Shown: positions 10,182-59,726 of the stretch, in pieces | Layout: the number at the start of each line of letters is the position of its first letter | How positions within the stretch are numbered: the first letter of the stretch is position 1 | DNA from: Deltaproteobacteria bacterium | Lineage (GTDB): Bacteria; Bdellovibrionota; JAJCYS01 | Reading direction: 5' to 3' | Assembly: GCA_029262815.1 (NCBI GenBank) | Contig: JAJCYS010000038.1 | Span: 15,182 to 79,181 of the forward strand | Length of the DNA: 64,000 nucleotides | The notes under the pieces: model-generated | What the model was told of the DNA's origin: nothing | Database searches by the model: none | Seen by the model: the letters and a program-made list of their open reading frames with translations, nothing else | Made by a program: the position numbers and the translations under genes

Positions 10182-10335
10182 CAATAGGTGCCAAAAGGTA
10201 GCCGGGGAACCTAAGAGCTATTCCAAAAGGTAGCCGGGGAACCTAAGAGCTATTCAATAGGTGCCAAAAGGTAGCCGGGGAACCTAAGAGCTATTCAATA
10301 GGTGCCAAAAGGTAGCCGGGGAACCTAAGAGCTAG
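10182..10335. repeat. tandem array of four direct repeats (41, 32, 41, 41 bp), family A, core CCAAAAGGTAGCCGGGGAACCTAAGAGCTA
   Basis: Read directly: units at 10182-10222, 10223-10254 (truncated), 10255-10295, 10296-10335. The last unit abuts the stop codon (10336-10338) of the minus-strand gene. No spacers, so not CRISPR. Confidence 0.9.
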
Positions 10336-12292: not shown

Positions 12293-12341
12293 GGATTCCT
12301 GCCGAGTTTATCCCAGCTGAGGCTGGGGCAGTAATGACAAG
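12293..12341. repeat. family B-like element (GGATTCC...GTAATGACAAG)
   Basis: Resembles the GGATTCCC...GGGAATGACAGG elements at 14177 and 37324; lies directly 5' of a family A copy. Confidence 0.4.
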
Positions 12342-12347
12342 TTTGTA

Positions 12348-12383
12348 TGCCAAAAGGGTGACGGGGAACCTAAGTGTGGCTAG
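12348..12383. repeat. family A repeat, single copy (TGCCAAAAGGGTGACGGGGAACCTAAGTGTGGCTAG)
   Basis: Matches the 10182-10335 units; overlaps the stop codon of CDS 12380-13267. Confidence 0.7.
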
Positions 12384-26934: not shown

Positions 26935-27672
26935 GTGGCATGGAAGACACCATACGGAATCCTATTGGGCTGCTTTCTTTGGAGTCACATGGGATTTGCT
27001 CAAGAGGAGCGACGCATCCTCGATGTGCGTGGACCCACGACCCATCTCAGCAAAGTACACAACCGTCAAAAATCTTCAGGATTTAAACTTGGCTTTTCTC
27101 TTGCTTCACAACTCCCACTAGAAACACTCGCGGTTGCTGTCGACAACATTGATCCTACCAAAACAGCTGACTTTGTTGCTAAGGCGACTTTTCACGGCCA
27201 ACTGTCCATCGCATTCATGTTGTTTCATCGGCTGGAAATTTTTGGATTTGTTGGGTTTGGGCTGTGGTCTGCTGACGCTGTCTTAGATGCAGCCATCTTT
27301 GAGAGTCTGACACTCGACTTGAGTATGTTTGAGGGAGGAGCGGGTGCGCTCTATAAGTTCTTCAGTGGGGATATTCTCCCATATCTGATTGTCTATTTTG
27401 GCGGCTCGTCGACTACGGCCGATCTATTCAAAAACAACGATATTGGACTTCAGGAAGGCGAACAAGCCACGTTGTTTTACGGCGGCGCTGGCGCGGGTGT
27501 GGAAGTTTATCTGACACCTCACTGCGGATTTCGGATACAGTTTGTGGGTTTGTTTTATAACGATTTAGTCGACTTGGATGTTTTTATTGGTGGGGGGGGA
27601 ATCGAGCAAGCCGATTTGCCAGAACGCTGGGTCAATCTACTCATCACAACAGGGCTTTTTTATGAATTTTGA
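26935..27672 (+). CDS. putative outer-membrane beta-barrel protein
   Basis: Signal peptide; Gly/aromatic-rich alternating pattern; C-terminal ...LFYEF ending in Phe, typical of OMP barrels. Confidence 0.5.
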   Translation: MAWKTPYGILLGCFLWSHMGFAQEERRILDVRGPTTHLSKVHNRQKSSGFKLGFSLASQLPLETLAVAVDNIDPTKTADFVAKATFHGQLSIAFMLFHRLEIFGFVGFGLWSADAVLDAAIFESLTLDLSMFEGGAGALYKFFSGDILPYLIVYFGGSSTTADLFKNNDIGLQEGEQATLFYGGAGAGVEVYLTPHCGFRIQFVGLFYNDLVDLDVFIGGGGIEQADLPERWVNLLITTGLFYEF

Positions 27673-27708
27673 CTCTCTATATAATAGAGAAGAGAGGGGG
27701 GAGCAACC

Positions 27709-28341
27709 ATGAGTCAAATTATTGGTTTTTTTCAACAAGGGGGGATGTTTATGATACCGATCGCCCTGTGTTTGCTATTTAGTGTGGTTATCAGTATTGA
27801 ACGGTTCTTCAAAGTCTATTACCTGTATAGCATCGACAGCACCTCCTTTATTTCCAAAGTTCAAAATCTGACCCTTCAAAAAAATTACGACCAAGCCATT
27901 TCGCTCTGCAACTCAAAGGAAACAGCTCTTTTACCCCGCGTTATTAAATCCGCACTTCAGGGAGCCAACGAAACAGAACACAAAGTAAACATCCGAATCG
28001 AAGAAGCTACGTTGGGCGTACTGCCGCTTATTGAAAAAAGACAATCCATCCTGCCGATGATTGCAAACGTTGCCACACTGCTCGGACTGCTCGGTACGAT
28101 TGTGGGCTTAATCGAAGCCTTTGGTGCGGTTGCATCAGCCGAACCTGCCTTAAAAGCTGAGCTGCTCACACAGTCCATTTCGATCGCGATGAACACAACT
28201 GCATTTGGATTGATTGTGGCGATTCCCACCAATATTTTCCACACCATCATTCAAGAGCGGGCTACAAAAATCATCGGAGATATCGATCAGTATGCCGTAC
28301 GTATTTCTCATTTATTAAGCTTGAGTAGTGCTAAAGGATAG
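27709..28341 (+). CDS. MotA/TolQ/ExbB-family proton channel
   Basis: 210 aa; three TM segments with LLGLLGTIVGLIEAF block typical of ExbB/TolQ. Confidence 0.75.
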   Translation: MSQIIGFFQQGGMFMIPIALCLLFSVVISIERFFKVYYLYSIDSTSFISKVQNLTLQKNYDQAISLCNSKETALLPRVIKSALQGANETEHKVNIRIEEATLGVLPLIEKRQSILPMIANVATLLGLLGTIVGLIEAFGAVASAEPALKAELLTQSISIAMNTTAFGLIVAIPTNIFHTIIQERATKIIGDIDQYAVRISHLLSLSSAKG

Positions 28342-28347
28342 AAGAGC

Positions 28348-28896
28348 ATGAGACCTCCCAGCCAGCGAAGTTATCGTCGCAAACAGGAACAGGAACTCGA
28401 ACTCACGCCGATGATGAGCCTTTTTGTTGGGCTGGTACCTTTTCTGTTAACGCTTGCCGTATTCACAAAAGTGACCTTAATCTCCCTGCCCTTGCCAAAA
28501 GTAGCCCAAACAGAACAAGAGATCCGAAAAGTAGAGAAGGAAAAATTCTATCTCAGGGTGTATATCATCGATCGTAAGACAAAAAACCAAGTCCGTGGGC
28601 GACCGGGATTCGTGGTAGATAGCAACGCCTTTCGCAAAGGACCCAAATTTCTGCCCCTAACCAAAGAGAAGTCGTACGACACAACGGGGCTCAACGCCGT
28701 AATGCTTGAGGTTAAGAAGAAGAATATCAAACGGAAAAATGTCATTATCATTTCGGGTAAATATGTAGGGTTTCAGGATTTGGTCAGGACTTTAGATGCG
28801 ACACGTGAAATTCTACCCGAATTGGCTGTGAACAATCCTGAACTTCTAGGTGTAGAGCTTTTTCCTGACGTTATTATGGATGAGGCAGGTAGTTAG
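28348..28896 (+). CDS. ExbD/TolR-family protein
   Basis: 182 aa; single N-terminal TM preceded by a LELTP motif. Confidence 0.6.
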   Translation: MRPPSQRSYRRKQEQELELTPMMSLFVGLVPFLLTLAVFTKVTLISLPLPKVAQTEQEIRKVEKEKFYLRVYIIDRKTKNQVRGRPGFVVDSNAFRKGPKFLPLTKEKSYDTTGLNAVMLEVKKKNIKRKNVIIISGKYVGFQDLVRTLDATREILPELAVNNPELLGVELFPDVIMDEAGS

Positions 28897-29422
28897 AGAT
28901 ATGAGTCGATTTAAATCGAAACGTCGCGCTCGAGCCCAAACGCCGCAGCTTCAAATCACATCACTCCTTGATATTATGACGGTACTGCTTTTCTTTTTGC
29001 TCAAAAGCTTTGGCACCACACCTGAATTGAACATTTCAAAAAATCTTGAATTACCTAAAAGTGTCAGCACACGACCTGCGGTTTATGCGTTGAATATCGC
29101 CGTTTCAAAAAACGAGATCTCAGTTGATGGAGAGTCGATTATCGCATTGCAAGGCATCAGCAAGGAGACAAAACGTTTGCCTCAAGCTGTATTTCGGAGA
29201 GATCCTGATTTGATTGCTCCGCTCTTTGAACTCTTGGCCAAAAAGAGAAGTTACGCCGCTAAACTTGCAAAACGCGATCCGCTTATAAAATTCAAAGGCG
29301 ACTGTATCATTCAAGCTGACCAAGACACGCCATTTCACATTATTAAAAAGGTGCTCTATACGGCTGGTCAGGCTGGGTATTTGATGCTCAATGTCGCGAC
29401 CTTGTCGACAAAAGATATTTAA
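28880..29422 (+). CDS. ExbD/TolR-family protein (second copy)
   Basis: ITSLLDIMTVLLFFLL TM block; likely start at MSRFKS (28901). Confidence 0.6.
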   Translation: MRQVVRDMSRFKSKRRARAQTPQLQITSLLDIMTVLLFFLLKSFGTTPELNISKNLELPKSVSTRPAVYALNIAVSKNEISVDGESIIALQGISKETKRLPQAVFRRDPDLIAPLFELLAKKRSYAAKLAKRDPLIKFKGDCIIQADQDTPFHIIKKVLYTAGQAGYLMLNVATLSTKDI

Positions 29423-29430
29423 GTAAAGTT

Positions 29431-29474
29431 GGATCCCCGCTCCTTCTTCGTCATCCCTGCCTTCGCAGGGATCC
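29431..29474. repeat. family B-type palindromic element (reverse orientation)
   Basis: GGATCCCCGC...ATCCCTGCCTTCGCAGGGATCC; hairpin ATCCCTG / CAGGGAT with CCTTCG loop. Confidence 0.6.
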
Positions 29475-29486
29475 ATTTCGACTTAC

Positions 29487-29537
29487 TGCCAAAAGGGTGC
29501 CGGGGAACCTTAGTGCTTTGGGGAACCTAAGTGCTTT
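29487..29537. repeat. family A repeat, 1.5 units (TGCCAAAAGGGTGCCGGGGAACCTTAGTGCTTTGGGGAACCTAAGTGCTTT)
   Basis: Same GGGGAACCTAAG core as the 10182-10335 array; here upstream of the plus-strand CDS 29605-31929. Confidence 0.7.
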
Positions 29538-29604
29538 CCCACCTACTTCCAAACAGCAATTCCTGATATACTACTCACAAGAAATTAGATTCGAGGGGGA
29601 AAGA

Positions 29605-31929
29605 ATGAGATTTCTGAATGTTTTAACTGTACTTTTTTTTATCGGCACGGCAATTGAATTTGAATCATGCAATCCGGCGCCCCCAGCGGACAACAATGTA
29701 GCTGCAGCTCCTGGAGTCGACGATTCAGTTGTTGACATAGAAACTCTAGGTGGTGGCGGAGGCGGTTCCGATAATCCGGATGACACAACTACGGTTTGCC
29801 AGGAAGGAGACATAGATGACAAAGTTGCTGCGGGCACTACAGCTCTATTGTCTGGTGAAGTCGACACAGGTGCGACACCTATAGTCGTTGTATGGCCAAC
29901 TAATGGAGATTCCTGGCTCAGCGGGTTTGAGACAAATACAGACCCTGGAATTCTATTCGATAGTGTAGATTTAACCGGTACATTTGGTGAACTGGGCGCT
30001 ACTGGCGGTACCGGGGACGATACGGATGCTAACTTTTTACTTCAAAATGGCTCTGACGACGTATTCTATCTTGAGGTTACAGGCCGTTTTTCGTCTGCTG
30101 TAGGGGACTACGAAGACGCAGCCCTATCTGCTGATGCAGATTTTATCGGAACTGTGCTTGATGGTACTGGAGATTTAAGTACCTGTTTTGAATATCCGAT
30201 TACAGATGGCACAACACCCAGCTTAACTAACCTAAATGGGGCAAATGATCATTGTAGCGACATCGTAGCCTCAGGGCCACCGACCGGTACTCGAGTTTGG
30301 TACGTAACGGTTGTCGATGATGTGTCAGCAACTTCCGGCACAGCTGCACGAAAACAAGTCGGCACATGTACGGGGGGAGCAGTATGTGTTTCTTTGACCT
30401 CTGAATCAGGTTTCAATTCTGAAGTAGAGGACGTCAATCAAGAAGGCACTTTTGTATTTGTTCGAAACGGCGATGGCACAGCTGCAGCACCCCTCACTGG
30501 CAATCAGTCCATCTATCGATTCACGGTTGCGTCACCTACAACCGCACCTGTCCGGCTCACAGACGGCACTCAAGGTGCTTGTACAGCTGCAAGATTATTC
30601 GGAGATTCGGCCGCCAGCTCTGCTGGTACTGTCCTCTTGACCGCATGTGGTGGCGATGTCTGGGGCATCACTGACCCCTTTGGTACAACACCCGGTTCAC
30701 CGATTTTGTTATTCGATCACGCCACGGTGGACATTGATGTTCTTGTAGGAAGTCCTATGGAATCAGACAAAACGGGACGAGGTTTCACACGTGTTGCCAT
30801 TCCGTCTATGACAACGCCTACAAAAAAATCTGTCATAGCCACCAATACCCCTGTTGGCCTGAATTGTAATGCCGGTGGTAGCGGCACAGCTGCCTTGTCT
30901 TCATTCAGCTTCCTTTGGAATCTGGGCACCGCGACCTCTGGTTTTTCAAGCCTACTCAGACTTGTCAGTGGCTATAATCTGGGTAATGTACGCGATAGTC
31001 ATCTGGGAAAAGATGCAAACGGGGATTTTATTCGATTTGTAGTGTACGATAGCGACCCACAACGTGTGTACGCTTACTTTATCGGAGACAATATTGGCTT
31101 TCCGTTTGTAGCAGTTCGAACCAGGAGTGATACGGACACCTTCCTTGGCATGCATGTCACCAAAGACTTTATTTATGTTTTAGCGAGCAACATGAAAGTG
31201 TACCGCCGATCCAACACAGCAAAATGGGGAACACTGGGAAAAATTGAAAATGAAGTCGATGACTGGACACTCGTCACAACCATGCCAATGGGCACAAAAT
31301 CAATTGTCGTAGACGATTCCGTAGCAGGCGCACTTGATATCTTTTACGATGGCGATAGCCTAATTGATTCAAATAGAGCTTTTCTAAAACAAGGGTATAC
31401 CGTCGCTGGCACGACGTTCACACCTGTCGGCGTGCCGATCGAAAAATATAATTCTGGCTCATCATCAAATACATTACACGTTGATGATCTAACAAAAGTG
31501 GGTTCTCGTAGAAGCCTTTTTGGCCGCGATGACAATGGTAGTATTGTTAAGCCTATCATTGCTGATGTGCTTGATCCCACAAAATCTGTGGGGGACATGA
31601 GTTCCTTTGCCGGACTATCCTCGTGCCCCGCTGGGACGATGCGTGAACTCGTAGCGACGACCGACCCTGCATACAAAAAACTTGGCGGCCCAGATCCATC
31701 ATCTGGCACGTTCACATTTCACGCAACTGTTCTGGCTCCCTGCGGAGGCATTGACGAAGTCTGGGGCATCAATACCTTTGATAGAGTTTCTACATTTACA
31801 TCGACCGACCCCACTAGTCACAACAATTTTGGCACCACACCTGCAGGATGTAAGATTAATGGCCTTGAAATTCCAGAACCCGTAACTGCTGCAACTAAAA
31901 TAGATTGCCCACCCTTTGATACGCCATAA
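29605..31929 (+). CDS. large secreted Gly/Thr/Asp-rich protein, unknown function
   Basis: Start at ATG 29605 (MRFLNVLTVLFFIGTAIEF, signal peptide) preceded by GGGGGAAAG. 774 aa with no recognised catalytic motif; Gly-run GGGGGG near N-terminus. Confidence 0.6.
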   Translation: MRFLNVLTVLFFIGTAIEFESCNPAPPADNNVAAAPGVDDSVVDIETLGGGGGGSDNPDDTTTVCQEGDIDDKVAAGTTALLSGEVDTGATPIVVVWPTNGDSWLSGFETNTDPGILFDSVDLTGTFGELGATGGTGDDTDANFLLQNGSDDVFYLEVTGRFSSAVGDYEDAALSADADFIGTVLDGTGDLSTCFEYPITDGTTPSLTNLNGANDHCSDIVASGPPTGTRVWYVTVVDDVSATSGTAARKQVGTCTGGAVCVSLTSESGFNSEVEDVNQEGTFVFVRNGDGTAAAPLTGNQSIYRFTVASPTTAPVRLTDGTQGACTAARLFGDSAASSAGTVLLTACGGDVWGITDPFGTTPGSPILLFDHATVDIDVLVGSPMESDKTGRGFTRVAIPSMTTPTKKSVIATNTPVGLNCNAGGSGTAALSSFSFLWNLGTATSGFSSLLRLVSGYNLGNVRDSHLGKDANGDFIRFVVYDSDPQRVYAYFIGDNIGFPFVAVRTRSDTDTFLGMHVTKDFIYVLASNMKVYRRSNTAKWGTLGKIENEVDDWTLVTTMPMGTKSIVVDDSVAGALDIFYDGDSLIDSNRAFLKQGYTVAGTTFTPVGVPIEKYNSGSSSNTLHVDDLTKVGSRRSLFGRDDNGSIVKPIIADVLDPTKSVGDMSSFAGLSSCPAGTMRELVATTDPAYKKLGGPDPSSGTFTFHATVLAPCGGIDEVWGINTFDRVSTFTSTDPTSHNNFGTTPAGCKINGLEIPEPVTAATKIDCPPFDTP

Positions 31930-31950
31930 AACAAAGGCCTTGTTCTATTA

Positions 31951-31983
31951 CCCGGTGCGGAGTTCAATCCGCACCGGGTTTTT
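31951..31983 (+). terminator. intrinsic terminator (11-bp stem CCCGGTGCGGA / TCCGCACCGGG, loop GTTCAA, T5)
   Basis: Perfect inverted repeat followed by TTTTT; T-tract overlaps stop of convergent gene. Confidence 0.65.
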
Positions 31984-33131
31984 CACAGTCCAGAGCCTGC
32001 ACACCCTGACCAATACCGAATATACAGATCAACGACGTCTTCGCCAAATTGATGACTCATATTCTCTCGCACTCTAAAAATTTGTGAAACACCTAATTGG
32101 AAACCAGTCCCACTCTCTAAAGTCAATTCGTCAAATTGGCTGATCAGTTTTGGCGATCCATGTGTGTTCATTCGATCAATATCCTCAAGTATCACACTTA
32201 ACCACATATCTGATCCCACAAAATCACGTAACCCGTATCCTTCCTCTACCTCAAGCATAAATGGGACTAACAACAGTCGTTCCAACGCAGCAAGCGTAAC
32301 CATATCATCAACAGAAACCTGTTTTTTGAGGTGCTCTAGAAAAAGGGCCTCGTACATTCCTTTCCTTTGAAATTTTTCTTTATGCAACAATTCGACCAAG
32401 TAGCCTCCCGATACGAGTAGCATCGTAGAAGCAAAGCCTTTGTTGATTTCAATAAAATCTTGCAATATAAATTGCTTGATACTGATATCTGAAAATGGAT
32501 AGGCCAGTACTTTTGCTTTTAGGGGGTCCAAGTAAAACGAACGATAGTCTTTGTATATAAGACCTTCCTCTTCTTCAACCCGTTCAATCCAAGACCGTAA
32601 CTTATGATTTATGACCGTTGCTTTTGTACGTTTTAGATCAAGAGTCTCTTCTATCAGAGCGGCCTTAGGTAAATAAAATTCCATGCGTTCAAAGACCCCG
32701 TATAAATCCGTCAATGCATCTGCACGCACATAGATCAATCGTGCAATGGTTTGCAAATCTGCATCTCTCACGATCTTCGCTGCATTCAACTCGATCAACA
32801 TCTGAGCTTGTATATGTGCATCCATTAATTCCACCAGATGAAACTGAAACAGATCTACAGGTGTGATTTCGAACACTTGGTTTAATTTTTGAAATTCAGA
32901 AATTGTCAAAGGCCTGTTTTGCTCAGCAGCATCCATCAGCCCTTTCGCGGCTTGAAACTGTTTGATGGGAACAACTGCACCCAAATTTTCTGGATTAGAT
33001 TGAATTGTGCGAACGACTTCATCCAACCAACCGGTATCCCCAAATCCTACTTGGGCTGTCAACAGTAATACGACGAACAACACGACTCGACTCATCCTTT
33101 GCACATACCAATAGAGCCCCCCTTCTGTCAA
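31983..33131 (-). CDS. secreted hypothetical protein (alpha-helical by composition)
   Basis: 382 aa; probable start at MSRVVLFVVLLLTAQ signal peptide; no motif recognised. Confidence 0.55.
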   Translation of the reverse strand: MTEGGLYWYVQRMSRVVLFVVLLLTAQVGFGDTGWLDEVVRTIQSNPENLGAVVPIKQFQAAKGLMDAAEQNRPLTISEFQKLNQVFEITPVDLFQFHLVELMDAHIQAQMLIELNAAKIVRDADLQTIARLIYVRADALTDLYGVFERMEFYLPKAALIEETLDLKRTKATVINHKLRSWIERVEEEEGLIYKDYRSFYLDPLKAKVLAYPFSDISIKQFILQDFIEINKGFASTMLLVSGGYLVELLHKEKFQRKGMYEALFLEHLKKQVSVDDMVTLAALERLLLVPFMLEVEEGYGLRDFVGSDMWLSVILEDIDRMNTHGSPKLISQFDELTLESGTGFQLGVSQIFRVRENMSHQFGEDVVDLYIRYWSGCAGSGL

Positions 33132-34467: not shown

Positions 34468-36024
34468 TTGCCATGTATGGCCATATTATCAGCGACTATA
34501 GGCTGTTTATCAACGCCCCCTTTTTCGCTTGTACCACTGGTCTATCTCTACTTGATCCCTGTATTTATAGTGCTACACAACGGTGCCATTTCAACACGCC
34601 AGAAGATACTCTTTATCTTGTTTCACAGCTGGCTTATCGGCATTTCGAACCACCACTGGCTCTACTATGCCATTCATGAATTTGGCGGCATCGACAAACC
34701 CCTAGCCGTTCTATTAACGTGTGCTGTTAGCGCTGTCACCAATCTTGAATATGTCTTTGCGGGCCTCGCTGCAATTTTTACTTTGCGACGCTACCCGGCT
34801 ACTAGCTTGGCCGTTTATGGCATCGTGCATGTGGTATGTTTTTATTTTCCAGCGCTCAAGCTTTTCCCTTGGACCACAGGGTGCGTGCAAATCCTGTCAC
34901 CGATCATAGCGCCTGCGTATTATGTCTTAGGCCAAGCGGGCATGATGGGTGTAGTCTTATTTCTCAATACAGTATTGTATTATGCTTGGAGGCTTTACTG
35001 TTCAGGGATTAAAAATTATCGAATTTTTCTTGCACGTGATTTGGGTGCATGCATTTTATTTGTAGCGCTTTGTATCGGCTTCAAATGTTATCTCGACCAT
35101 CATAAGACAGACATGCAGTCTCAAAAAATACGGTTTCTCGTCGTTCAAGCCAACGTGATGAATTTCATGAAACAACAAGCTAAGGTTGGCCATTACCCAA
35201 CCATTCGAAAGACCATCAAAATATATATCCGAAAAACGAACCAGGCATTGAAGAACCTGGCTATCCCACCATCCAAAGAAAGCCCAGTTGTTGTCATTTG
35301 GCCTGAATCCGCTTACCCCTTAAGTTTCCCCACCCCTATCAGCTGGAAATCACGACGCATGAACCCGTACCTCAGTAACTGGATGAACCAACATGAATTT
35401 GTGCACTTTATCTTTGGAGCCACAAGTCACAATGCTGTTTGGTTCAATAATCATCAGGTGAAAGGCATCTACAAAAAGATACATCTACTGCCGTTTGGTG
35501 AATACATGCCTTATAAAAAACATATGCCAGCTTGGGTACTCAAACTGTGGGCTCAAAATCGCAACCCCACTCCGGGAACTGAATGGGCGGCATGGCCACT
35601 CACCGACACCCTAACACTAGTACCCACAATTTGTTACGATGCCTTATTCCCACAAGCAAGCCATTTTGCAATCCAAAATCACGCACACTTGTTTCTTAAT
35701 TTAACAAAAGATGGTTGGTTTGTTGTCCGTCGTGCCCAAGAGCTCCATCTCATGATGGCTCGAATTCGATCTGCCTCAACAGGCATCCCTATGCTTCGAT
35801 CTACAAACACCGGAATCACCGCATGGATAAACAGTAATGGACAAATTGAAGAACAGCTGCCGATTAACCAGATGAAAACATTATCCCTAGAAAAACAGTT
35901 CCCTCGATCTCAAACCCCACGATACTGGTTCTGGATTCAAAATCTTATTAGTTGGTTGTTTTTAATTGTTTGGTTTTGGCGATGTAGGAATTGGCACCAA
36001 CATGCACTGACAGGTAGCGTTTAA
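34468..36024 (+). CDS. lnt: apolipoprotein N-acyltransferase
   Basis: N-terminal multi-TM region; C-terminal CN-hydrolase domain with VVIWPESA and ICYDALFP (catalytic Glu and Cys blocks). Confidence 0.8.
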   Translation: MPCMAILSATIGCLSTPPFSLVPLVYLYLIPVFIVLHNGAISTRQKILFILFHSWLIGISNHHWLYYAIHEFGGIDKPLAVLLTCAVSAVTNLEYVFAGLAAIFTLRRYPATSLAVYGIVHVVCFYFPALKLFPWTTGCVQILSPIIAPAYYVLGQAGMMGVVLFLNTVLYYAWRLYCSGIKNYRIFLARDLGACILFVALCIGFKCYLDHHKTDMQSQKIRFLVVQANVMNFMKQQAKVGHYPTIRKTIKIYIRKTNQALKNLAIPPSKESPVVVIWPESAYPLSFPTPISWKSRRMNPYLSNWMNQHEFVHFIFGATSHNAVWFNNHQVKGIYKKIHLLPFGEYMPYKKHMPAWVLKLWAQNRNPTPGTEWAAWPLTDTLTLVPTICYDALFPQASHFAIQNHAHLFLNLTKDGWFVVRRAQELHLMMARIRSASTGIPMLRSTNTGITAWINSNGQIEEQLPINQMKTLSLEKQFPRSQTPRYWFWIQNLISWLFLIVWFWRCRNWHQHALTGSV

Positions 36025-37386: not shown

Positions 37387-37665
37387 TTATTCAGGCCATT
37401 CTACGAGAAGTTCATTCTCAGCTAGATAACCCGTTTGCAATCGAATGACCCGCTCTCGATACCGTCTATCATGCTTGAAGATTTGGATGGTGTGCTGAAG
37501 TGCCTCAAGCTCTTGCTTAAGCAACACCAGCTCCTGATCAAATTTTTTCTTCTTTTGATACAAAGTCCAAAGTGTCTGCACACCCTTTGATTCAAAATAA
37601 GAAATAGTCCCTACAGCTGAGACCACGATTCCCACACACACACTATGTATTAAAAAACGTCTCAC
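37387..37665 (-). CDS. FtsB/DivIC-like small coiled-coil membrane protein
   Basis: 92 aa; N-terminal TM, central coiled coil, C-terminal RERVIRLQTGYLAENELLV resembling the FtsB C-terminal block. Confidence 0.5.
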   Translation of the reverse strand: MRRFLIHSVCVGIVVSAVGTISYFESKGVQTLWTLYQKKKKFDQELVLLKQELEALQHTIQIFKHDRRYRERVIRLQTGYLAENELLVEWPE

Positions 37666-38078
37666 CGCTTAGATGTTCGCTCCGTTGCAATACTAAATTT
37701 CGTTACCTTATTGCGTTGTAATATATCAAAAATCTTGACCACTATACCATGGGGGGTGGCTTTGTCCGCTTCGATTAATAATTGCTTCTCAGTCAAGCTC
37801 GGCATATTTTTGATCGTTGTTTCTAGCTCTTGAGCGGTAATCGGTTTTGATCGCCAATAAATTTGGCTTTTTTCATCAATCGAAATCACCAACGGCACAC
37901 TTTCCCCCGTTCCTTTTTGCATACTGGTCTTCGGCAGATCAATCTGGAGCGGGTTATGTTTGATGAATGTAGTAGACACCATAAAAAAGATTAACAATAA
38001 AAACACCACATCAATGAGCGGTGTCAAATCAATCGAAGGCACCTCTTCAGAAACCGATTGTTCATCAAATTTGATCAT
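37662..38078 (-). CDS. ExbD/TolR-family protein
   Basis: IDLTPLIDVVFLLLIFFMV canonical ExbD/TolR motif; 138 aa. Confidence 0.8.
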   Translation of the reverse strand: MIKFDEQSVSEEVPSIDLTPLIDVVFLLLIFFMVSTTFIKHNPLQIDLPKTSMQKGTGESVPLVISIDEKSQIYWRSKPITAQELETTIKNMPSLTEKQLLIEADKATPHGIVVKIFDILQRNKVTKFSIATERTSKR

Positions 38079-38700
38079 GTCGCTTCTCTAAGAACAGGGT
38101 TTCGTACACGTTATCTAACTCTGATTCAATCGCGGTCATAATCGTCAAAGATCGATTTCGAATCACTTTATGAGCCACAAATGTTGGAATCGCAACCAAC
38201 AATCCAGCGATCGTAGTCAACAAAGCTTCAGATATCCCCCCCGCTAAGTGGCTTGCATTTCCTAACCCATGGGTATTAATCGTCTGAAAGACATGCATCA
38301 TCCCAAGCACCGTACCCAACAACCCCAAAAGAGGTGCAATACTGGCAACCGTCGAAAGCATATCCACACCACGCATCAATTGCTTTTGGACCATCGTCAT
38401 CGGCCCACGCATCCTTTCAGCGGTTTCTTTGGATCCGTGTGATTGATACTCCAACATTTTTAACACGAGATAACTCACCGGACGGTTCGAATGTTTAAGA
38501 CGCCCGATCACTTCATTTGCCTGATCAGAACCTAAATGCTTCAACTCATTAAGCAACGACTTAGGCAAATGATACCCATTTCGTAAATACACCAAACGTT
38601 CCAAAAAAACGGCCAGTGAAACCACAGAAATTAACAAAATAACCCCAAGGACAGGCCCGCCTTGTTCGAATAACGCTACCCAATCAATTGTCATAATCAA
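38065..38700 (-). CDS. MotA/TolQ/ExbB-family proton channel
   Basis: 211 aa; IAPLLGLLGTVLGM block. Confidence 0.8.
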   Translation of the reverse strand: MIMTIDWVALFEQGGPVLGVILLISVVSLAVFLERLVYLRNGYHLPKSLLNELKHLGSDQANEVIGRLKHSNRPVSYLVLKMLEYQSHGSKETAERMRGPMTMVQKQLMRGVDMLSTVASIAPLLGLLGTVLGMMHVFQTINTHGLGNASHLAGGISEALLTTIAGLLVAIPTFVAHKVIRNRSLTIMTAIESELDNVYETLFLEKRHDQI

Positions 38701-59603: not shown

Positions 59604-59607
59604 TAAA

Positions 59608-59721
59608 GTTGCGCTGTACTACTCTCCCACAGGGCTACCCCTGCAGTACCATCGTCGCTGAGGAGCTTAACTGCCGAGTTCGGAATGGGATCGGGTGTTT
59701 CCTCCTTGCTATCAGGACAAC
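59608..59721 (-). rRNA. rrf: 5S ribosomal RNA (solitary)
   Basis: Minus-strand sequence ...CCGAUCCCAUUCCGAACUCGGCAGUUAAGCUCCUCAGCGACGAUGGUACUGCAGGGGUAGCCCUGUGGGAGAGUAGUACAGCGCAAC aligns block-for-block with bacterial 5S (CCGAACUC, GUUAAGC, CGAUGGUACUG, GGGAGAGUAG). Ends are +/-5 nt. Confidence 0.85.
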
Positions 59722-59726
59722 GAAAT

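Follow-up and report, generated by a model that had tools for sequence, protein, structure and literature searches.

The 64,000-nucleotide (nt) stretch of Deltaproteobacteria bacterium DNA analyzed here (GenBank assembly GCA_029262815.1, contig JAJCYS010000038.1; "the window" denotes this whole stretch) carries an orphan gene, P0001, which follows co-directional genes for a predicted outer-membrane (OM) β-barrel protein (OMP), an ExbB-type proton channel and two ExbD paralogues. The window is chromosomal and contains mostly housekeeping genes, among them plsX-fabD-fabG-fabF and glyA (serine hydroxymethyltransferase, SHMT) on the minus strand, together with murC, murB and lnt, and the host is Gram-negative and "deltaproteobacterial" in kind (Myxococcota/Bdellovibrionota-like). 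The features of the locus are collected in Table 1. The open reading frame (ORF) of P0001 is uninterrupted from the ATG at 29605 to the TAA at 31927-31929 and encodes 774 amino acids (aa); an initial annotation of this DNA had given its length as 775 aa, which is reached only when the stop codon is counted. The program-called ORF opens upstream at a GTG (29497). The ATG at 29605 is preferred as the start because the motif GAGGGGG lies 5 nt upstream of it, the signal sequence follows directly, and the sole homologue aligns from residue 1. P0001 is a real gene. The chance probability of 774 stop-free codons is ~1e-15 (our own estimate, at ~4.5% stop codons), and a Logan contig from SRR15505518 shows 100% identity across positions 27484-30032 of the window. 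The GC content of the gene (0.478) and that of its third codon positions (GC3, 0.388) match the rest of the window, and the gene therefore looks native.

Composition and N terminus of P0001

P0001 is almost certainly a real exported protein. Its sole hydrophobic segment comprises ~15 residues after a 2-residue N terminus and resembles a signal peptide, which supports the export proposed in the initial annotation. No transmembrane (TM) segment or hydrophobic stretch was found in the remainder of the protein, including the C terminus, which ends in ...CPPFDTP. The composition is dominated by Thr (11.9%), Gly (11.5%), Asp (9.3%), and Ser (8.4%), and the combined fraction of these residues, ~0.40, compares with 0.237 ± 0.030 in the 49 other window ORFs of ≥150 aa (z ~5.5), confirming the Gly/Thr/Asp/Ser-rich character described earlier. 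The protein is acidic, with an isoelectric point of 4.25 and 94 Asp and Glu residues versus 44 Lys and Arg residues. The run of six glycines and the scattered cysteine pairs that had also been noted are both present, the former at residues 49-54 and the latter among the 13 cysteines at positions 22, 65, 194, 217, 255, 261, 326, 348, 421, 674, 713, 749, and 768. Cys22, at the end of the signal sequence, is the candidate lipidated residue, and lipidation of P0001 is likely but not secure as judged from the sequence. A possible alternative processing site, for signal peptidase I, follows Gly14-Thr15-Ala16.

A single homologue, P0002

Searches of Pfam and NCBIfam with P0001 gave no matches even at E ≤ 10, and a sequence search of the PDB likewise returned none. 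The absence of a recognizable domain or catalytic motif that had been reported is thus borne out, and the family searches assigned P0001 to no common family of known function. A word-indexed search of 5.8 billion proteins returned only P0001 itself, as an NCBI singleton cluster. An exhaustive HMMER (phmmer) scan of 1.84 billion cluster representatives identified a single relative, P0002, an unannotated and unnamed NCBI singleton protein of 761 aa with 25% identity to P0001 over ~400 residues (library-wide E 3.7e-8, pairwise E 1e-16). Word-indexed searches with P0002 and with the alignment of the two proteins each returned a query protein only, and Pfam gave no match for P0002. No relative was found when 185,579 GTDB species genomes and the JGI metagenomes were scanned with the two-sequence alignment, no match was obtained by tblastn against plasmids and phages, and a PDB search with the two-sequence profile gave only chance matches, to the kinesin CENP-E at E ~0.7. 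The window encodes no paralogue of P0001.

P0002 is of similar length to P0001, acidic, and rich in Thr, Gly, and Ser, but it contains less Asp, 24 cysteines compared with 13, and a canonical lipobox (LTGC). Its N terminus is a textbook lipoprotein signal (...ITVAGASLTG-C), the cysteine of which is placed on Cys22 of P0001 by MAFFT. In P0002 a Gly/Ala/Pro-rich stretch of ~40 aa separates the lipobox Cys28 from Cys68, comparable to the segment between Cys22 and Cys65 of P0001, and in both proteins this low-complexity region looks like a lipoprotein tether. Three cysteine pairs are conserved between the two proteins (194/217, 326/348, and 749/768 in P0001 numbering), and once the lipobox and signal-peptide cysteines are removed both are left with an even number, 12 in P0001 and 22 in P0002. 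The conserved pairs and the even counts fit a protein that forms disulfides in an oxidizing compartment outside the cytoplasm. Conservation is highest in the motif LL(T/F)ACGGD(V/I)(W/Y)G, which P0001 repeats in degenerate form (APCGGIDEVWG) close to its C terminus, and both proteins share a C-x-P...P ending. P0001 and P0002 form a new two-member family without a known domain, of a familiar kind, the orphan envelope lipoprotein.

Structure prediction and tests for known protein classes

Structure prediction and a repeat search, two of the checks suggested with the initial annotation, were both carried out. AlphaFold2 reached a mean predicted local distance difference test score (pLDDT) of ~32 with the single sequence as well as with the two-sequence alignment. 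Helix is almost absent from both predictions, and their strands coincide: from residue 300 to 560, a group of four recurs at intervals of 45-50 residues. This can be taken only as a hint that P0001 is mostly β and possibly propeller-like. When the pLDDT-32 model was compared with the PDB by Foldseek, no match reached E ≤ 1e-3; the highest-ranked entries are mostly β-propellers (phytase, RCC1, lectins, and WD40) but, at TM ~0.1 and E > 1e-3, carry no weight. A β-propeller is a closed ring of four to ten four-stranded blades that repeat in sequence or structure. Neither self-BLASTP nor self-hhalign detected internal repeats in P0001.

P0001 was also compared with the defining features of other classes. 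The VWA domain of CglB-like gliding adhesins was not found, nor was any other Pfam family at E ≤ 10. TonB proteins combine a C-terminal TonB_C domain (PF03544) with an uncleaved N-terminal TM anchor, whereas P0001 gave no TonB_C match at the same threshold and has a short, signal-like hydrophobic segment. RTX or calcium-binding repeat adhesins carry tandem GGxGxD nonapeptide repeats or other tandem domains, and P0001 has two isolated GGxGxD strings only and no internal repeats; RTX, Asp-box, DxDxDG, and RGD motifs were all absent. No S-layer or SLH domain was found in Pfam or NCBIfam. Autotransporters and OM β-barrel proteins have a C-terminal barrel that ends in an aromatic residue; Pfam gave no barrel domain for P0001, the last residues of which are ...CPPFDTP. 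For C-terminal sorting tags (MYXO-CTERM, PEP-CTERM, T9SS CTD, and LPXTG) there was no NCBIfam or Pfam match and no C-terminal hydrophobic segment.

Gene neighborhood and flanking elements

The OMP, ExbB, and two ExbD genes are oriented in the same direction as P0001 and are separated from one another by 36, 6, and -17 nt. The gap of 182 nt between the second ExbD gene and P0001 contains a hairpin, a repeat box, and a candidate extended -10 element, and no canonical promoter or terminator was called in it by the scans. The strong downstream terminator of the initial annotation is clearly present (-29 kcal/mol, z -5.9). The upstream repeats are also real, with an 18-nt unit occurring twice at 29502-29537, but they are not specific to the P0001 gene because the same dispersed intergenic family occurs at 10191-10335 and 12350-12376. 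The repeat box has the form CCAAAAGG..GCCGGGGAACCTAAG.G, with four copies at the first of these sites and one at the second. The description of P0001 as a single-gene unit holds with respect to its terminator, but the unit itself is not established, the gene being co-directional with, and 182 nt downstream of, OMP-ExbB-ExbD-ExbD. Judged from the sequence, the gene may be transcribed from its own promoter or by read-through from the ExbBD genes.

Table 1. Features of the P0001 locus, followed by features elsewhere in the window
Feature	Position	Strand	Basis or remarks
OM β-barrel protein (OMP), 245 aa, signal peptide, C-terminal Phe	26935..27672	+	Pfam OMP_b-brl E 1.4e-4, below curated cut-off; weak TIGR04565
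ExbB/TolQ/MotA-family proton channel	27709..28341	+	Pfam MotA_ExbB E 3.9e-23
First ExbD/TolR paralogue, TM Ser for conserved Asp (LTPMMSLF)	28348..28896	+	Pfam ExbD E 2.3e-9
Second ExbD/TolR paralogue, TM Asp kept (SLLDIM)	28880..29422	+	Pfam ExbD E 1.1e-12
8-bp hairpin ATCCCTGC-cttc-GCAGGGAT between second ExbD and P0001	29453..29472	+	No proper U-tract after it; not called by terminator scan
Dispersed intergenic repeat copy CCAAAAGGGTGCCGGGGAACCTTAGTGCTTT and second GGGGAACCTAAGTGCTTT unit	29489..29537	+	~0 matches expected by chance
Candidate extended -10 promoter TGATATACT	29564..29572	+	Read from sequence; not called by scan, which requires a -35 match
Shine-Dalgarno-like GAGGGGG	29593..29599	+	5 nt before ATG; read from sequence
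Coding sequence of P0001, 774 aa	29605..31929	+	ORF list and translation; identical protein on record once (NCBI)
Signal sequence, aa 1-22, MRFLNVLTVLFFIGTAIEFES-C	29605..29670	+	Sole hydrophobic segment of P0001
Pro/Ala/Gly/Asp-rich low-complexity putative tether, aa 23-65, including the six-Gly run, ends at Cys65	29671..29799	+	Sequence; comparable P0002 stretch
Intrinsic terminator, perfect 12-bp stem (31950-31979), 6-nt loop, T5	31950..31984	+	-29 kcal/mol, z -5.9
Repeat box, four tandem copies	10191-10335	+	Period 32/41/41
Lipoprotein, 620 aa	10336-12198	-	Standard lipobox
Hairpin CCCAGC/GCTGGG	12314-12329		~20 nt 5' of repeat box
Repeat box, one copy	12350-12376	+	
Lipoprotein, 295 aa	12380-13267	-	Standard lipobox
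Signal-peptide protein, 382 aa	31983-33131	-	No significant Pfam/NCBIfam family
Signal-peptide protein, 345 aa	33253-34290	+	No significant Pfam/NCBIfam family
lnt	34468-36024		
Second ExbB/TolQ-ExbD/TolR pair (211 and 138 aa), followed by a 92-aa protein	37387-38700	-	Separate from triad beside P0001
5S rRNA gene	59606-59722	-	95.7 bits

The consensus of the repeat box across its three sites is tgCCAAAAGG(G/T)(T/A)G(C/A)CGGGGAACCT(A/T)AG(A/T)G, and all copies lie on the plus strand regardless of the orientation of the flanking genes. At two of the sites a short hairpin is located ~20 nt 5' of the box, and the stems of these hairpins (12314-12329 and 29453-29472) differ by a compensatory change. 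The box matches no Rfam family, and no copy was found in the JGI metagenomes. One such box lies between, and others after, the genes of two paralogous lipoproteins of 620 and 295 aa, which contain internally repeated, helical-looking Lys/Glu-rich units of ~60 aa.

Directly downstream of P0001 and before lnt are the genes for the 382-aa and 345-aa signal-peptide proteins, so that, with P0001, exported proteins specific to the lineage make up a small patch surrounded by housekeeping genes. A second ExbB/TolQ-ExbD/TolR pair lies further downstream; after it comes a protein of 92 aa that contains a TM segment and a coiled coil and looks FtsB/DivIC-like. No 23S rRNA was matched in the window, and the 5S rRNA gene is either a lone copy or unlinked from an rrn operon.

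ExbB-ExbD-ExbD loci in other genomes

A search of the GTDB species genomes with the window ExbB gave 274 relatives, the best of which reach only ~51-52% identity. The closest are found in Myxococcota, Bdellovibrionales, and "Deltaproteobacteria" metagenome-assembled genomes (MAGs), followed by Gammaproteobacteria. Because ExbB has no relative above ~52% identity and the P0001/P0002 alignment found none in the GTDB genomes, the sequence suggests that the window derives from a lineage that branches deeply and is under-sampled. In the loci of the relatives the ExbB-ExbD-ExbD triad is conserved, with an Asp-less first ExbD. In the first ExbD the TM Asp is replaced by Ser in the window and by Asn or Ser in the relatives (N-terminal sequences, ~20 loci), whereas the second ExbD keeps it. 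This asymmetry appears to be conserved over the Myxococcota, Bdellovibrionota, and gammaproteobacterial clusters inspected.

Upstream of the triads in the relatives are tetratricopeptide repeat (TPR) proteins and a small secreted protein. Downstream there is either a conserved ~460-aa protein without a Pfam match (Myxococcota-type) or, in Gammaproteobacteria, a ~330-aa protein, with weak TonB_C matches in two of the three that were scanned, and a cyclic nucleotide monophosphate (cNMP)-binding protein is often next in these clusters. In the Myxococcota and Bdellovibrionales MAGs (loci L001-L036, for example L003, 7986-14991) the order is TPR lipoprotein, ~100-aa secreted protein, ExbB, ExbD, ExbD, ~460-aa protein, ~320-aa protein, and cNMP-binding protein; the ~460-aa protein of these loci begins with "..KILRIGIIQ.GKIIEE" and likewise has no Pfam match. 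Luciano et al. described a "core complex" of gltD/E/G/C and aglR/Q/S as ancestral to the Myxococcus gliding machine (PMC3169522). The TPR/TonB-like clusters of the relatives resemble this core complex in gene content. None of the conserved partner genes of these clusters (TPR, TonB-like) is present in the window, and no relative of P0001 or of OMP was found in the 80 loci with the closest ExbB genes, indicating that the slot after the second ExbD is filled here by the orphan P0001.

Interpretation of P0001

We propose, with moderate confidence, that P0001 is an acidic, mostly β protein of the cell envelope that is restricted to its lineage, exported and disulfide-bonded, probably with a lipid anchor, and that it serves in structure or binding. 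Its N-terminal signal sequence would direct it to Sec for export, after which Cys22 would most likely be acylated and the protein anchored in the OM. A flexible Pro/Gly/Asp-rich tether of ~40 residues would suspend the ectodomain, which is predicted to be large, acidic, and mostly β and to be held by approximately six disulfides. P0001 may then act as a non-enzymatic structural or ligand-binding OM component facing either the periplasm or the surface. Typical lipoproteins and Lnt are encoded in the same window, in keeping with this proposal.

Several points weigh against this proposal. A lipobox normally has the form [LVI][ASTVI][GAS]-C at the end of the signal peptide with no charge at positions -4 to -1 (PROSITE PS51257-type rule). 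In the I-E-F-E-S-C segment of P0001, Ser at -1 and Phe at -3 are acceptable, but the FESC box fails the usual pattern through Glu at -2 and -4, and the other lipoproteins of the window carry standard boxes (LSGC, SSGC, YGC, and TAC). From the sequence, cleavage by signal peptidase I after the GTA motif is equally plausible. The AlphaFold2 models (pLDDT 32) are unusable, so that a "mostly β" and a "non-enzymatic" protein are only weakly indicated, and conserved catalytic residues cannot show up in a family of two sequences.

If signal peptidase I were to cut after Ala16, P0001 would be a soluble periplasmic or secreted protein, such as a β-propeller-type binding protein or a far-diverged hydrolase. 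The atypical lipobox with a G-T-A site before it, the four-strand groups of the AlphaFold2 models, and the propellers prevailing in the non-significant Foldseek list are in line with this, but we consider it improbable. The lipobox of P0002 is canonical at the aligned position, an unlipidated Cys22 would leave the mature P0001 with an odd number of cysteines, the Foldseek matches to a model of this quality carry no weight, and blade repeats are not detectable by sequence. P0001 does resemble the OM lipoprotein BamB and TolB, which is encoded after tolQ-tolR-tolA, in being a probable β-rich envelope protein beside TolQ/TolR-type genes, and the weak four-strand periodicity of its low-confidence models recalls β-propeller envelope proteins. 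It differs from BamB and TolB in having no PQQ, PD40, WD40, or TolB_N match and no detectable blade repeats.

The initial annotation had put forward a surface adhesin or S-layer-like coat protein encoded by an autonomous single-gene unit. P0001 is exported, large, acidic, and rich in Thr, Ser, Gly, and Asp, and its gene has its own terminator, a candidate extended -10 promoter, and a Shine-Dalgarno site, all of which agrees with this reading. No specific support for it was found, however: the tandem domains and internal repeats typical of adhesins are not found in P0001, nor are an RTX, Asp-box, or RGD motif, and Pfam and NCBIfam gave no S-layer, SLH, or C-terminal sorting domain. Many cysteines are unusual for a classical S-layer protein, and P0001 contains 13. 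With no evident surface-export route in addition, an adhesin or coat protein of this kind is unlikely.

The position of P0001 makes a functional tie to the adjoining ExbB/ExbD motor possible, with OMP as a possible partner. In a motor-coupled module, P0001 would be the OM or surface end of a machine that includes the 245-aa barrel and the ExbB-ExbD-ExbD motor, and would be exposed, moved, or changed in conformation by the proton-motive force. The co-directional and closely spaced OMP-ExbB-ExbD-ExbD genes lead up to P0001, the sole strong terminator follows P0001, the scan called no canonical terminator between the second ExbD gene and P0001, and the triads of the nearest relatives (Myxococcota, Bdellovibrionota, and several Gammaproteobacteria) lie in clusters with TPR and TonB_C-like proteins that match the Agl/Glt core complex. 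In the parallel case of Myxococcus, the adhesin CglB, a Cys-rich OM lipoprotein, is controlled by the AglRQS motor together with the GltA/B/H barrels (bioRxiv 10.1101/2020.07.22.216333). CglB of the M. xanthus Agl-Glt system is, as P0001 probably is too, a Cys-rich, disulfide-bonded OM lipoprotein of very narrow taxonomic range, and it is handled by small OM β-barrels (bioRxiv 10.1101/2020.07.22.216333) and acts together with a TolQ/TolR-type motor with one ExbB-like and two ExbD-like subunits, the same gene types that flank P0001. CglB, however, is a 416-aa protein based on a VWA/integrin alpha-I domain that contains a metal ion-dependent adhesion site (MIDAS) motif, whereas the 774-aa P0001 has no VWA match and no sequence similarity to CglB, and the remaining Glt genes are not in the window. 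The adjacency is seen in a single genome, neither P0001 nor OMP has a relative in the 80 related ExbB loci, the TPR and TonB-like partner genes are not in the window, a hairpin and a plausible promoter for P0001 itself lie in the 182 nt before it, and P0001 has no VWA or other adhesin domain. We therefore regard the motor-coupled arrangement as doubtful. A bolder form of it, in which P0001 and P0002 found a new family of disulfide-rich OM lipoproteins that serve as the output of a minimal proton-motive machine lacking TonB (small OM barrel plus an AglRQS-like set of one ExbB and two ExbD proteins), an Agl-Glt/CglB analogue assembled from unrelated outer parts, would be quite improbable.

An inner-membrane energy transducer replacing TonB or GltG, with an uncleaved anchor on ExbB/ExbD, a Pro/Gly-rich linker spanning the periplasm, and an output domain, is very improbable given the signal-like N terminus of P0001 and the cleavable lipoprotein signal of P0002, although no TonB is encoded nearby and P0001 occupies the slot that in the relatives holds a weak TonB_C protein (Gammaproteobacteria) or the ~460-aa protein (Myxococcota-type). 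P0001 shares with TonB/GltG-type transducers the location of its gene directly after the second ExbD and an N-terminal hydrophobic segment followed by a Pro-rich stretch, but it has no TonB_C match at E ≤ 10 and a cleavable-looking N terminus, and is ~2-3 times larger.

If P0001 is merely a lineage-specific envelope lipoprotein, as we propose, it matters little, since orphans of this kind are frequent in phyla with poor sampling. It would be of interest if it defines a new fold, with no template, no family, and a failure of AlphaFold. Should the location of its gene after those of an AglRQS-like motor and an OM barrel be functionally meaningful, Tol/Exb-type motors could be rewired to novel OM cargo, which would bear on the evolution of gliding and other envelope-spanning machines, and a minimal TonB-less machine, if real, would constitute a compact motor-to-surface module for force or exposure.

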